Origin: a virus | Taxonomy: Duplodnaviria > Heunggongvirae > Uroviricota > Caudoviricetes | Virus record (IMG/VR): IMGVR_UViG_2844443253_000007 | Strand: one strand, 5' to 3' | Length of the DNA stretch: 48,088 bases | Shown here: piece by piece, positions 13,226 to 17,778 of the stretch | Position numbering within the stretch: position 1 is the first letter of the stretch | How the letters are laid out: each line of letters opens with the position of its first letter | Translations under genes and position numbers: made by a program | Notes under the pieces: model-generated | The model's database searches: none | Told to the model about the DNA's origin: nothing | What the model saw: only the letters and a program-made list of their open reading frames with translations

Positions 13226-13302
13226 GGCCCTTTAGCTCAGTTGGTCAGAGCGAGCGACTCATAATCGCCAGGTCGCTGGTTCAAGTCCAGCAAGGGCCAC
13301 CA
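13226..13302 (+). tRNA. tRNA with anticodon CAT (Ile2/lysidine-type or Met)
   Basis: Cloverleaf with acceptor GGCCCTT/AAGGGCC, anticodon loop CTCATAA, TPsiC GGTTCAAGTCC, CCA end; resembles ileX/ileZ-type. Confidence 0.8.
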
Positions 13303-13303
13303 A

Positions 13304-13380
13304 CCACCACTAGCTCATCCGGATAGAGCATCAACCTTCTAAGTTGACGGTGCGAGGTTCGAGTCCTCGGTGGTGGGCCA
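13304..13380 (+). tRNA. tRNA-Arg (anticodon TCT); unusual acceptor stem beginning with C
   Basis: Anticodon loop CTTCTAA, TPsiC GGTTCGAGTCC, acceptor CCACCAC/GTGGTGG, CCA end. Confidence 0.7.
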
Positions 13381-13382
13381 GC

Positions 13383-13458
13383 GCCGACTTAGCTCAGCAG
13401 GCAGAGCAACTGACTTGTAATCAGTAGGTCACCAGTTCGATTCCGGTAGTCGGCACCA
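13383..13458 (+). tRNA. tRNA-Thr (anticodon TGT)
   Basis: Acceptor GCCGACT/AGTCGGC, anticodon loop CTTGTAA, TPsiC AGTTCGATTCC, CCA end. Confidence 0.75.
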
Positions 13459-13461
13459 TAT

Positions 13462-13536
13462 GCGGGCATCGTATAATGGCTATTACCTCAGCCTTCCAAG
13501 CTGATGATGCGGGTTCGATTCCCGCTGCCCGCTCCA
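13462..13536 (+). tRNA. tRNA-Gly (anticodon TCC)
   Basis: Acceptor GCGGGCA/TGCCCGC, anticodon loop CTTCCAA, TPsiC GGTTCGATTCC, CCA end; resembles host glyT-type sequence. Confidence 0.85.
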
Positions 13537-13650
13537 TGACCTTTCTTAAAGTACTCCAACCTACTGAATCCTAAGGGATACGGCTTTAAGCCTCCTTGCA
13601 GAGTTACTTACTGTAACCCACTGTGTAACCCTCTCAGGGCATGCAGACAT

Positions 13651-15255
13651 ATGATTCAGCTATCCAGTAGTCACAAACTTCCAGCAGTCTACTATCTCTA
13701 CCAGCGTAACGGCGTCTACTACTTCCGTCTTAGGGTCAGACAATCAAACAATGATAGAATGACCTCAATATCATTACGGACCAAGGATAGACGCACCGCT
13801 ATGGCTTACTCAAGGCACATAAAGGCAGCACTCAAGGCAATACACGCAGACAGACCCAACGCTACCTATGAGGAAATGAGGGAACACCTTAAGGACATCG
13901 CTGAGTGTGAACTGTCTATGGGCCGTTCAGATCTCTTTGAGCCTGACATGAGGGATATCTACCGGGACCAATACGGAGAACTTGGTGAGAGCCTTACCGA
14001 TGCTCTGGCTAGTGAGCCGCTAAGCATTGACCAGCATCGTTACATCAATGAGGCCCTGAAGGTGCTAAAAGCCTGTATGAGGCGTATCGAAGCGGGAGAC
14101 AGTCAGCCTCTGATAGATTACGTCGATCTTTTTAATGATATTGATAGGCAAGATAACCAAGCAGACTCTGTGTCCCTATCTGTTAATGCTCCAGAAGTAA
14201 AACCAGAAGTTACGCCTAGCATTACCATAGCGAGCCTCTTTGAACAATACGAAGCGGAGAACTATCAGAACTGGAAGCCTGCAACCTTAAGGGAAAACAA
14301 GGCGTCACACGCTGCGTTAATCGAAATATTCGACCATCTGGGTCTCAATGCAGACGCTAACAGGGCTGACATGCTTAGGGTCCGTGATGTGCTCCAGCAG
14401 TTACCTAGGAACCGTAAGCAGCGCTTCAAGGATGTCCCACTTGCTGACCTGTTGAGCCGTGAAGATAAGACAGATTGTCTGGATGTCGTTACCATCAACA
14501 ACAAGTATCTTATTAAGATGGCTGCTGTCTTTAGGTGGGCTGTGCGCAATGACTTGATTAAAAAGAACATGACTGAGGGTCTGGAGCTTAAAGTCCCTCA
14601 GCGTAAAGCCTCAGGGGCCCGTAACGCCTTCTCTACGGAGCAGGTGGGGCAACTACTGGTCGCAGCTAAGGCATACTCTCAGAAGACCTCTGGTAAGCCG
14701 TATCATTATTATGTTACCGCCTTGGCTGCTATCACTGGGGCGAGACTCAATGAAATAGCCCAACTACAGGTCAAAGACGTCAGGACCACTGAGGCGGGAA
14801 CCGTTTATATTCATATCAATGAAGACGATAGTAGTCTACCCGGTAAGAGCATCAAGAACGCTCATAGTGACCGCTGTGTGCCTCTGGTCGATGGGGCCTA
14901 TGGTTTTATATTGGCTGACTTTATGGCGCTTGTAGAGACCCGTAGAGGCGCTGACGGTGATGACGCTATGGTGTTCGATGGTCTGCGTCTCATGAAGAAC
15001 GGTTACGGTGAGCAGGTGAGTAAATGGTTTAATCGGACGTTGTTGCCTAAAGTCCTCGTAGACCGTAGCGGCTTAGCGTTTCACTCGTTTAGACATACAG
15101 TTGCGGCCCAGTTAAAACAACATGGGGTCGAGTTGGCGTATGCACAGGCGATCATGGGGCATAGTTCAGGGTCTATTACGTACGACCGTTATGCTAAAGA
15201 GGTCGAGGTTGATAGGCTGGTCAATGTGATGGCTGATGTTTATAAGGAGACCTAG
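13651..15255 (+). CDS. int: Tyrosine recombinase / integrase (534 aa) adjacent to tRNA cluster
   Basis: C-terminal catalytic signature (R in ITGARLNE, HSFRHT, final Y in ITYDRY); N-terminal arm-binding-like domain. Confidence 0.85.
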   Translation: MIQLSSSHKLPAVYYLYQRNGVYYFRLRVRQSNNDRMTSISLRTKDRRTAMAYSRHIKAALKAIHADRPNATYEEMREHLKDIAECELSMGRSDLFEPDMRDIYRDQYGELGESLTDALASEPLSIDQHRYINEALKVLKACMRRIEAGDSQPLIDYVDLFNDIDRQDNQADSVSLSVNAPEVKPEVTPSITIASLFEQYEAENYQNWKPATLRENKASHAALIEIFDHLGLNADANRADMLRVRDVLQQLPRNRKQRFKDVPLADLLSREDKTDCLDVVTINNKYLIKMAAVFRWAVRNDLIKKNMTEGLELKVPQRKASGARNAFSTEQVGQLLVAAKAYSQKTSGKPYHYYVTALAAITGARLNEIAQLQVKDVRTTEAGTVYIHINEDDSSLPGKSIKNAHSDRCVPLVDGAYGFILADFMALVETRRGADGDDAMVFDGLRLMKNGYGEQVSKWFNRTLLPKVLVDRSGLAFHSFRHTVAAQLKQHGVELAYAQAIMGHSSGSITYDRYAKEVEVDRLVNVMADVYKET

Positions 15256-15343
15256 AGGAGACCATAGTCTAGGATGACACTTACTACAGACCTGTGTGGT
15301 CATGTTTTTGACTCATAGTTTTCTCTACTTGTCAAGGGATAAT

Positions 15344-15366
15344 TAATACGACTCACTATAGGGAGA
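15344..15366 (+). promoter_or_regulatory. T7-type promoter, exact 23-bp consensus TAATACGACTCACTATAGGGAGA (predicted +1 G at 15361)
   Basis: Exact match to the T7 RNA polymerase class III promoter consensus. Confidence 0.9.
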
Positions 15367-15606: not shown

Positions 15607-15630
15607 AAGGGACACAAAAAGTTTTCTCTT

Positions 15631-16004
15631 CTAGGACAACTAACCGTAACTTATCGCATCCTTTCAGGGGCGGGATGACCAATTACAGACACCAAGCGTT
15701 CTACTTAAAGTGAATGCTTCCTGTGTGCTCTGGGTCAGTCGATAAGTGAATAGCAATAAGACACAATCATCTTAATTATGGTCTCTAGTCCCTACAGGGG
15801 CTTAACTTAAAGTTAACTTAAAGACACAATTAAAGATTAACTTATAGTATTACTTAAAGTTAACTTAAAGACACAATTAGAGATTAACTTTAAGTATTAA
15901 ATAAAAGATTTAATTAAAGACCAATTAAAGATTAACTCTAAGGGAATACCTTAAGGGGTGATGATATTTATAATAATCAATCACCAAACCTATAGGTCTT
16001 CTCT
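15631..16004 (+). repeat. AT-rich non-coding region with reiterated CTTAAAG / TTAAAGA motifs (T7-group left-end / origin-like)
   Basis: Units such as cttaaagttaacttaaagacacaattaaagattaactta repeated; no ORFs. Confidence 0.7.
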
Positions 16005-16076
16005 TGAAGTGGCACACTGAATTTGGCCACCTGAACAGAGGTGATATGCTCACCTCAGAACAACACAGGTGCTCCA

Positions 16077-16379
16077 ATGAAAAAAAGAAATTTTAGCGCA
16101 GAGTTTAAACGCGAATCCGCTCAACTGGTTGTTGACCAGAAATACACGGTGGCAGATGCCGCCAAAGCTATGGATGTTGGCCTTTCCACAATGACAAGAT
16201 GGGTCAAACAACTGCGTGATGAGCGTCAGGGCAAAACACCAAAAGCCTCCCCCATTACCCCGGAACAAATTGAAATCCGTGAGCTCAGGAAAAAGCTACA
16301 ACGCATTGAAATGGAGAATGAAATATTAAAAAAGGCTACCGCGCTCTTGATGTCAGACTCCCTGAACAGTTCTCGATAA
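16077..16379 (+). CDS. IS911 OrfA
   Basis: [21 protein letters not shown]...; ORF track extends start to 16041. Confidence 0.9.
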
Positions 16380-16405
16380 TCGGGAAACTCAGAGCGCATT
16401 ATCCT

Positions 16406-17245
16406 GTGGTCACACTCTGCCATGTGTTCGGGGTTCATCGCAGCAGCTACAGATACTGGAAAAACCGTCCTGAAAAACCAGACGGCAGACGGGCTGTATT
16501 ACGCAGTCAGGTACTTGAGCTACATGGCATCAGCCACGGTTCGGCCGGAGCAAGAAGCATCGCCACAATGGCAACCCGGAGAGGCTACCAGATGGGACGC
16601 TGGCTTGCTGGCAGGCTCATGAAAGAGCTGGGGCTGGTCAGCTGTCAGCAGCCGACTCACCGGTATAAACGTGGTGGTCATGAACATGTTGCTATCCCTA
16701 ACTACCTTGAAAGGCAGTTCGCCGTGACCGAACCAAATCAGGTGTGGTGCGGTGATGTGACCTATATCTGGACGGGTAAGCGCTGGGCGTACCTCGCCGT
16801 TGTTCTCGACCTGTTCGCAAGAAAACCAGTGGGCTGGGCCATGTCGTTCTCGCCGGACAGCAGGCTCACCATGAAAGCGCTGGAAATGGCATGGGAAACC
16901 CGTGGTAAGCCCGGCGGGGTGATGTTCCACAGCGATCAGGGCAGTCATTATACGAGCAGGCAGTTCCGGCAGTTATTGTGGCGATACCAGATCAGACAGA
17001 GTATGAGCCGGCGCGGAAACTGCTGGGATAACAGCCCAATGGAACGCTTCTTCAGGAGTCTGAAGAACGAATGGATGCCGGTGGTGGGTTACGTAAGCTT
17101 CAGCGAGGCAGCTCACGCCATAACGGACTATATCGTTGGATATTACAGTGCACTAAGACCGCACGAATATAACGGTGGGTTACCCCCAAACGAATCGGAA
17201 AATCGATACTGGAAAAACTCTAACTCGGTGGCCAGTTTTTGTTGA
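16406..17245 (+). CDS. IS911 OrfB transposase (DDE)
   Basis: 279-aa rve-type ORF. Confidence 0.9.
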
Positions 17246-17253
17246 CCACTTCA

Positions 17254-17480
17254 TCTAGGGTCTCTCTATAGGTCTTCTCTATGGTCTCTCTATAGGTCTC
17301 TCTAGGGTCTCCTCTAGGCATTACCCCCAGAAGCTAACTCTATGGCCCTCTATGGTCCTCTATGGCCCTGTACGTCATTCTTTAGGATGCCCTGTAGTTT
17401 CGTATAGCCTGATGCCTAGAGAGACCCTAGAGAGACCCTAGAGTGGCTCCTAGAGAGACCCTCCCAGTAGCTCCGCACAG
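17254..17480 (+). repeat. Short direct repeats TCTCTATAGG / CTATGGCCCT / CCTAGAGAGACC (T7-group genome-end-like)
   Basis: Reiterated 8-12-bp motifs, non-coding; continuous with 15631-16004 region once IS911 is removed. Confidence 0.65.
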
Positions 17481-17622
17481 CTACATCGTCATCATCATAG
17501 TATTCAATCTCAAAGTCATTCTGTTTGCATCCTGTTGTCCTGCTGGTCTCCCTTCGCTTGGGGACTTTGAGTAGGTCAGTGGGGGTGCGACTTCAGGGTG
17601 CAAACAAAAAGGAAATCAAGCG

Positions 17623-17778
17623 ATGTCTCAACAACCACAACAACCACAACAAGAAATCAGCATCATTAACCTCGACCAGCTTGTGTCCATGACCTCAGTT
17701 GAAATTGCTGAGCTGACAGGCAAGGAGCACCGAAATGTCCTTCGTGATATTCGTAAGATGCTCGAAGAACTTAACGCG
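17623..17778 (+). pseudogene. Rha-family phage regulatory protein, N-terminal fragment truncated by IS1
   Basis: TSVEIAELTGKEHRNVLRDIRKML matches Rha/antirepressor N-terminal motif; ORF runs into IS1. Confidence 0.7.

Follow-up and report, generated by a model that had tools for sequence, protein, structure and literature searches.

A truncated Shigella copy of the tandem T7-like-promoter islands and the predicted payload of its intact relatives

The locus described here occupies positions 13,226 to 17,778 of a 48,088-nucleotide stretch of DNA (IMG/VR virus record IMGVR_UViG_2844443253_000007), which as a whole is called the window below and is numbered from its first letter. On sequence grounds it is an inactivated member of the tandem T7-like-promoter islands, a family of small integrative elements that target tRNA-Gly genes. 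Chen and Schneider reportedly described 12 such islands of 4–13 kb in nine enteropathogens, with 2–3 tandem promoters and an upstream integrase. These islands reportedly have terminal repeats of 17–24 bp, no polymerase gene and no recognisable structural proteins, and they are said to have been proposed as satellites of T7-like helpers. With them the locus shares tandem T7-group promoters without a polymerase gene, an upstream tyrosine integrase and an enteric host, as well as the small size, the short end repeats (in intact copies) and the few phage-related genes downstream. The copy in the window differs in being truncated, lacking the right attachment (att) site, attR, and being disrupted by the insertion sequences (IS) IS911 and IS1. 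The family is named in the title of Chen and Schneider (2006, Nucleic Acids Res 34:1133; PMC1380254), a title confirmed in two reference lists. The class has therefore been published since 2006, and it is neither new nor an artefact. A review cites that paper with reference to the Shigella sit island, and the window comes from this very neighbourhood, so that the present locus is probably among the islands of the 2006 study. If this description of that study holds, the prediction of a capsid protein of the HK97 fold and the link to the defence protein RAZR, both presented below, add to its account.

A second group for comparison is that of the capsid-forming phage-inducible chromosomal islands (cf-PICIs). 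These are 10–15 kb long, carry a full head module (portal, protease, head-tail connectors and small terminase) and are induced by temperate helpers through a repressor/anti-repressor logic. With cf-PICIs such as EcCI2, the T7-promoter islands share the form of a chromosomal island with an integrase and a head protein of their own, here predicted to have the HK97 fold. They differ in having only 4.2–7.6 kb and 4–6 genes, with no head components beyond a shell protein and a possible scaffold, and in being wired to the RNA polymerase of a virulent phage. In place of a complete head and packaging module, only a homologue of the shell protein was found in the islands. As for the gene content of a satellite, intact relatives carry one predicted HK97-fold protein and DUF6971, and the window copy has neither. 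The first-pass annotation, made from the letters of the window, had missed the published class, the dead state of the copy and the payload of its intact relatives.

The Shigella copy and its decay

By comparison with related DNA, the Shigella copy is a truncated, IS-disrupted remnant of a T7-promoter island, because only the start of its Rha-type gene survives, whereas the nearest Escherichia coli relative, 21AR0133, has the full layout. That relative (94.6% identity in integrase DNA and 93–97% in non-coding DNA to the window) presents, in order, the integrase gene (int), two T7 promoters within 1.28 kb of non-coding DNA, a Rha gene (234 aa), an open reading frame (ORF) of 67 aa, an IS5 insertion, DUF6971 and a 373-aa protein. 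When all the cargo proteins of intact islands were searched against the window by tblastn, only the first ~42 codons of the Rha-type gene were matched, and the N-terminus of this remnant matches the Rha proteins of 234–248 aa from intact E. coli islands. The att core is single across the window with up to 3 mismatches allowed, and a second copy, which would be attR, was not found there; the copy is bounded by attL only, its right end being lost beyond IS1. The window copy is unable to excise or act, excision not being expected where attR is absent, and integrase and cis elements alone survive. Its components and the adjoining features are the following.

13226–13536, + strand: cluster of four tRNA genes with anticodons CAT, Arg-TCT, Thr-TGT and Gly-TCC (ARAGORN; Rfam tRNA)
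13514–13536, + strand: attL core, the 3′ end of the tRNA-Gly gene, TTCGATTCCCGCTGCCCGCTCCA
13651–15255, + strand: tyrosine integrase, 534 aa, intact (Pfam Phage_integrase 2e-17; DUF6538; PHROG 1 2e-44)
15268–15636, + strand: 121-bp tandem repeat, 3.1 copies, 96% matches (Tandem Repeats Finder, TRF)
15344–15366, 15465–15487 and 15585–15607, + strand: perfect T7 class III-type promoters, one per 121-bp unit
15637–15800, + strand: conserved non-coding block 3′ of the promoters, with CGCATCCTTTCAGGGGCGGGATG at 15655
15802–15937, + strand: AT-rich block of TTAAAG-type repeats, periods 11, 23 and 47 (TRF)
about 15957–15985: inverted repeat GGTGAT...ATCACC after the AT-rich block
16005–17254, + strand: IS911, outside the element proper (99% identity over 1250 bp to annotated IS911)
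17254–17316, 17338–17369 and 17415–17462, + strand: short direct-repeat arrays (TRF)
17508–17602, + strand: conserved leader of 95 nt with a long imperfect hairpin, directly 5′ of the first promoter-driven gene
17623–17777, + strand: 5′ remnant of a Rha-family regulator gene, ~52 codons (Pfam Phage_pRha 6e-10)
17778–18546: IS1, truncating the Rha-type gene (boundaries from repeats and NCBIfam)

In its inventory of parts the first-pass annotation was accurate. The intact 534-aa integrase that it placed directly after the four-tRNA cluster has Pfam and PHROG support, and the three tandem perfect class III promoters are exact at 15344, 15465 and 15585, with the starts that it had given. The TTAAAG block and the short repeats of the non-coding DNA were recovered by TRF, ~1.1 kb of this DNA being left after subtraction of IS911, and the Rha-like regulator that it described as truncated by IS1 is indeed cut at 17778. 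The integrase is 100% identical to an NCBI protein cluster of Shigella flexneri with 769 members. The IS911 insertion is called an IS3-family transposase by NCBIfam, and the sequence shows a TCT target duplication on either side of it. The short-repeat arrays are of the types TCTATGGTCTC, CTCTATGGCC and CCTAGAGAGAC and are rich in GGGTC/TGGTC.

An ORF6N gene and the same four-tRNA cluster are present in a lambdoid prophage of E. coli FDAARGOS_944, where holin and lysozyme genes follow directly. This prophage is homologous to the window as far as 13536 and no further, the tRNA-Gly gene ending at that base, and from 13537 onward the window matches the left end of glyU islands. Because the one match ends where the other begins, the integration target here reads as the tRNA-Gly(UCC) gene of a lambdoid prophage, the 3′ end of which resembles glyU, and not as chromosomal glyU. 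The island inserted into this prophage-borne gene and was later hit by IS911 and cut by IS1, with the loss of attR and of every payload gene. S. flexneri also has a second, more distant member of the family at glyU itself (SFBU1023; integrase identity 73%), so that, with this island beside the window-type copy, two family members stand at two different tRNA-Gly genes in this species.

The surroundings of the copy deserve a brief description. The first tRNA of the cluster (13226–13302, anticodon CAT) is called Met by ARAGORN and tRNA-Ile by RefSeq in the E. coli homologue, and it is presumably of the lysidine-modified tRNA-Ile type. In Shigella the expected lysis-side genes of the prophage are replaced by IS elements and the sit locus, as seen against the empty-site E. 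coli prophage (window 12370–13536). A sit-type Mn/Fe ATP-binding cassette transporter is encoded at 22479–25928, and the window (1–48088) is IS-dense around it: repeats of IS1 length (769–771 nt) occur in four places, an IS3-family element with ORFs of 100 and 272 aa is present in five copies, one of them truncated, and IS911 occurs twice. The window copy itself is of small importance, since it is a disabled remnant beside the sit genes.

Intact relatives and their payload

The integrase family is present in 362 of 5,426 complete E. coli genomes, and DNA similar to the promoter region is chromosomal in 91 of the same 5,426. Homologues of the window integrase have, among the matches listed, 82–100% identity and come from at least 10 enterobacterial genera. 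A survey across genera, restricted to a single genome for each species, gave 20 loci, distributed over Klebsiella, Lonsdalea, Rouxiella, Pectobacterium, Morganella, Enterobacter, Citrobacter, Buttiauxella, Shimwellia, Kluyvera, Proteus, Serratia, Edaphovirga, E. coli and Shigella, nearly all of which adjoin tRNA-Gly(CCC). The homologous element of E. coli lies at this same tRNA gene, adjoining actS. Ten relatives with both ends have direct repeats of 17–27 bp enclosing 4.2–7.6 kb; the island of E. coli FT130, for example, is ~4.3 kb long and has on each side a direct repeat of 23 bp that corresponds to the tRNA 3′ end. The survey of the integrase neighbourhood that the first-pass annotation had proposed thus defined the intact elements and their tRNA-Gly att repeats.

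Intact relatives present a common order: integrase, often RAZR (PD-T7-4), 1–4 phage-polymerase promoters, ~1 kb of conserved non-coding DNA, a protein of Rha, KilA-N or Ant type, a protein of 63–76 aa, DUF6971, a protein of 326–402 aa and attR. The conserved non-coding DNA consists of the AT-rich origin-like block, the short-repeat arrays and the leader hairpin, and CGCATCCTTTCAGGGGCGGGATG stands at the equivalent relative position in islands of E. coli, Klebsiella, Rouxiella, Morganella and Edaphovirga. In FT130, ~14 tandem copies of a 13-bp unit, GATGACCATAGGC, lie where RAZR sits elsewhere (locus L001:11771–11935).

The cargo was compared by clustering the ORFs of 11 intact islands. The first cargo gene is variable among them, being of the Rha, KilA-N or Ant type, and in 7 of the 11 it is accompanied by a trio: the 63–76 aa protein (recognisable in 5), DUF6971 (136–165 aa) and the 326–402 aa protein, whose genes lie, for instance, at L003:14629–15837 in the Klebsiella island locus and at L076:12684–13805. 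Sequence searches of Pfam, NCBIfam and the PDB were uninformative for the last of these and gave no family match; the UniRef name of one homologue is "DUF4043 domain-containing". An AlphaFold2 model built from 29 sequences (predicted local distance difference test 63.6, predicted template modelling score 0.61) was compared with the BFVD by Foldseek and had 166 matches at E≤1e-3, the named top ones of which were nearly all capsid or head proteins. The 326–402 aa island protein is therefore predicted to have the HK97 capsid/encapsulin fold.

DUF6971 is encoded just upstream of the capsid-like gene (L003:14197–14607 in the Klebsiella island locus). The model shows a small domain at the N-terminus together with two helices that are long and charged, and the fold search found only its own family, PDB 5eur (SF216 of S. 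flexneri M90T, with no assigned function). The conserved C-terminal tail, KRFGxKGAAFGL, is reminiscent of a shell-binding peptide. Gene order and the helical, charged composition alone suggest that DUF6971 could serve as a scaffold or as cargo. A literature search found no paper mentioning DUF6971.

The gene directly after int in the Klebsiella island (L003:11624–12256) is a full-length homologue of PD-T7-4 (PADLOC, 8e-99), with equivalents in loci L009–L012, L031–L034 and L039. A DUF4145 or related gene occupies the position after int in 5 of the 11 intact islands, as well as in several other copies from E. coli and from metagenomes, and RAZR is a regular passenger of the islands, directly after and often overlapping the integrase gene. 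It is absent from the window copy, from FT130 and from 21AR0133. PD-T7-4 was selected for protection against T7, is described as a gene that "often overlap[s] an integrase gene", and has been renamed RAZR, a HEPN RNase activated by the portal rings of T7 and T3 (Vassallo et al. 2022, PMC9519451; Nature 2026, PMC13017515). In their accessible text, the RAZR papers do not discuss the downstream phage promoters or the capsid-like gene (PMC9519451; PMC13017515).

Promoters, origin-like block and leader

The 23-mer TAATACGACTCACTATAGGGAGA occurs exactly, three times, on the + strand of the window, at 15344, 15465 and 15585, with none expected in 100 shuffles, and its predicted transcription starts are 15361, 15482 and 15602. 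Over 27 nt the window is identical to the context of the T7 phi13 promoter, DNA similarity to T7 itself being limited to the promoters, and the window promoter recurs in 358 records of T7-like phages. Two perfect T7 promoters stand at the equivalent place in both FT130 and 21AR0133. More widely, T7-group promoter-like sites were found 0.1–1.3 kb after int in 19 of the 21 loci with a readable downstream region.

The specificity region of the promoters differs among the islands. In the island of Klebsiella pneumoniae ATCC 13883, which is 6.4 kb long, sites of the sequence AATTAGGGCACACTATAGGGAGA, which we take to be the K11 consensus promoter, lie beside one T7-type site. This promoter cluster matches 165 Klebsiella T7-like phages, with 7–9 sites per genome. 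In detail, the Klebsiella island (L003:12262–12840) has K11-type sites in two places, a single perfect T7-type site and a fourth site of another variant. Such a mixture of promoters suggests an island able to respond to more than one kind of T7-like phage. In the Proteus cibi island the promoters (L020:11852 and 12480) are identical over 30 nt to promoters of the Vibrio cholerae phages ICP3/N4; no Proteus phage is among the matches. A third promoter-like site of FT130, CAATACGACTTACTAATAGGAGA, is divergent and comes after AATCAATACG repeats (L001:12720–12775).

No phage RNA polymerase gene was found in the window, of which a subset of the ORFs was scanned. Likewise, the cargo ORFs of the intact related islands scanned had no match to the RNA polymerase family, and none is annotated in the E. 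coli islands. The window therefore combines at least two tandem T7-group promoters without a cognate polymerase gene (three of them, in the 121-bp repeat) with an integrase upstream on the same strand (ORF 13651–15255, +). Dependence on a T7-like phage is a reasonable reading of this arrangement.

Like the primary origin of T7, which consists of phi1.1A/phi1.1B and an AT-rich region, the window has tandem T7 promoters followed, within ~200–350 bp, by an AT-rich block; in the window the sequence similarity is weak and short (best E 2e-4), partly compositional, and the function is predicted only. The best alignment of the block anywhere in T7 is with the primary origin after phi1.1B (5850–6010), with a score of 26, ahead of the left end with 23 and the phiOR region with 18. 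Versions of the block shuffled by dinucleotides scored 16.2 ± 2.3, with 1 of 60 reaching 26 (z ~4.3). Against 2.3 Gb of phage DNA, the best matches were non-coding DNA of T7-like phages, at E values from 2e-4 to 3e-3. They include matches at the origin position in Ebrios (6210–6259, between the polymerase gene and gene 1.1) and in IME15 (E 2e-4), and matches near the left end in Kvp1 and 2050H2. The AT-rich block is thus a candidate T7-type origin-like element with modest support. The suggestion of a replication origin in the first-pass annotation gains modest support from the architecture and from these matches, which came from the comparison with phages that it had suggested, and is weakened by how faint the resemblance is; the same comparison returned nothing for the arrays from 17254.

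The T7 primase pentamers GGGTC, TGGTC and GTGTC number 25 across the whole non-coding DNA of the window copy, against 5.9 ± 2.2 expected, and 32 in FT130, against 6.2 expected. None of 500 shuffles reached the count of either. When the non-coding DNA of 10 islands was pooled, GACCA, the complement of TGGTC, was the most over-represented of the 512 pentamers, with AGACC and GAGAC ranking close behind. This enrichment was tested post hoc, and binding sites for a protein, arranged as iterons, are an equally good explanation of what may be T7 primase recognition sites.

The leader has 66 invariant columns across 12 islands from 6 genera and is near-invariant whatever gene follows. Its consensus structure has 31 pairs and −31 kcal/mol, with little covariation. 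The leader of the window folds with a minimum free energy of −40.7 kcal/mol (z = −4.2), which none of 200 shuffles equalled. An Rfam scan of 13100–17900 found tRNAs only, the hairpin having no family match. By analogy with T7 mRNAs, one may speculate that it is a processing or stabilising site of the RNase III type.

Satellite, defence and other explanations

The islands may be elements that stay silent until infection, with a payload placed behind T7-group promoters, and that act as satellites also harming their helper; we consider this general reading evenly balanced between right and wrong. Under the mode of action that we infer, an island would be silent until a T7-group phage brings its RNA polymerase, which would fire the tandem promoters and lead to expression of the payload. 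The polymerase would also open the adjacent AT-rich block, as at the phi1.1A/B origin of T7, and the replisome of the helper would then copy the island. The shell protein of the island, perhaps with DUF6971 as scaffold, would form or perturb capsids, and any transfer would need the portal, terminase and tail of the helper. In a narrower form, the islands would be minimal capsid-encoding satellites of virulent T7-group phages, transcriptionally blind until the polymerase of the helper arrives and replicated by the helper from a T7-type origin; with their own shell protein and DUF6971 they would assemble or redirect capsids, and through RAZR they would often protect the host population. This form we put forward tentatively, with doubt outweighing belief. 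The satellite reading as such is plausible, and both the predicted capsid-fold gene and the origin-like block add strength to it. To our knowledge, no satellite has been demonstrated for T7-type phages, the textbook example of a strictly lytic way of life, and literature searches found neither such a satellite nor any experimental follow-up on these islands.

Several results weigh against the satellite reading. As regards genes, the capsid-like model is of moderate confidence only, the profile of the 326–402 aa family has no similarity to T7 gp10A, and the E. coli variants of 4.2–4.3 kb, like the window copy, are without the capsid-like gene. Scanning of the islands gave no terminase, portal, protease, replication initiator or recognisable excisionase, and tail genes were likewise missing from the intact relatives scanned. 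In addition, neither the window nor the intact islands yielded a T7-like polymerase, DNA polymerase, primase-helicase or head or tail genes of T7 type. The first-pass statement that no T7-type genes are present is accordingly true of the window remnant and has to be qualified for the intact relatives, which have the predicted HK97-fold protein and often the anti-T7 protein RAZR.

The cis elements give a similar picture. Shuffled queries of the AT-rich block also favour the T7 origin and left end, the resemblance being partly compositional, and the primase-type sites lie inside repeat units. The short-repeat and leader region had no BLAST match at E≤1 among 50,697 phage records. Compared with the ends of T7, the arrays reached a left-end score of 20, against a null of 15.8 ± 1.2 with a maximum of 19. 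The ATCTGTT class II pause/termination signal is absent. Unlike the transducing plasmids of T7, which carry an origin and a concatemer junction, the window copy lacks both concatemer-junction homology and the ATCTGTT pause site, and the genome-end repeats of T7 type that the first-pass annotation had seen in these arrays are not supported.

The searches for mobility were all negative. A pattern for the attP junction matched none of the metagenome and viral contigs (0 matches); its attL counterpart, used as control, was found in 31 metagenome contigs. Small metagenome contigs of 4.1–4.8 kb with integrase homologues were considered as excised circles and rejected, as each of them begins within tRNA-Gly or a host gene and its ends do not overlap; they are integrated copies. 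In IMG/VR, every match to the integrase or the capsid-like protein is a prophage call made in an isolate genome, none being virome-derived. No evidence of excision, replication or packaging was thus found in the contig and junction searches. These negative searches give no support for helper-dependent mobilisation and no refutation of it either, because mobilisation would be visible only during infection. The idea of a T7-dependent satellite, also raised in the first-pass annotation, keeps the promoters, a reasonable phage dependence and the capsid-fold relatives on its side, and lacks signs of excision and packaging.

A defence island triggered by the phage polymerase, without purposeful packaging and spread by its integrase and ordinary gene transfer, would account for part of the same evidence, and we regard it as somewhat unlikely. 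The promoters would then be a sensor of infection, and the Rha or KilA-N protein and a capsid-like decoy, with DUF6971, would poison phage development or capsid assembly, this triggered module acting alongside a constitutively expressed RAZR. The presence of RAZR, a validated abortive-infection protein against T7 and T3, directly after int in many islands strengthens this explanation. The lack of terminase, portal and replication genes in the islands scanned, the junction counts in metagenomes and the absence of virome-derived copies fit it as well. However, it is not obvious why a defence island should need ~1 kb of conserved non-coding DNA with an origin-like AT block and primase-type motifs, and the minimal islands of 4.2–4.3 kb keep these cis elements though they have neither RAZR nor the shell gene. 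The defence and satellite readings are not exclusive, since known satellites also carry defence genes. The polymerase-triggered expression cassette of the first-pass annotation survives in so far as cargo lies behind T7-group promoters and relatives have the RAZR link; as a class it is not new.

Descent from a temperate T7-like phage that once had RNA polymerase, replication and structural genes is very improbable. An integrase beside T7-type promoters would fit such a phage, as would the origin-like AT block and the HK97-fold protein predicted in relatives, and integrase-bearing T7-like prophages are known in Pseudomonas putida and among marine cyanophages. However, 11 intact elements from nine genera have att repeats only 4.2–7.6 kb apart and the same compact gene order, on which independent decay would not converge. 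Beyond the promoters there is no significant similarity to the DNA of T7-group phages, and the sequence of the shell protein shows no relation to T7 gp10. The relic proposed in the first-pass annotation is for these reasons not supported. The probability that the promoters come from a cloning vector or an assembly chimera is negligible, although the 23-mer is identical to the laboratory T7 promoter. They lie inside a natural 121-bp tandem repeat flanked by the integrase and conserved island DNA, and equivalent promoters, in two copies, are present in the independent complete genomes of E. coli FT130 and 21AR0133. Relatives in other genera have promoter variants not used in the laboratory, and similar DNA is chromosomal in the 91 complete E. 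coli genomes mentioned above. An artefact of this kind, which the first-pass annotation had named as a possible refutation together with the absence of the promoters from independent assemblies, is thus ruled out.

As far as the accessible parts of the published accounts go, three pieces are newly joined here: the phage-polymerase promoters, the frequent presence of RAZR and the predicted HK97-fold shell protein. The choice between satellite and defence is now directly testable with existing strains and phages, and it is of relevance wherever T7-like phages are considered for therapy against E. coli, Klebsiella and Shigella. As a lead on satellites of T7-type phages, the family has gone unexploited since 2006. 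If the islands are minimal capsid-encoding satellites, they would be the first satellites shown for the Autographiviridae, no smaller satellite with a capsid gene would be known, and the Shigella copy would represent a fossil member of the group.

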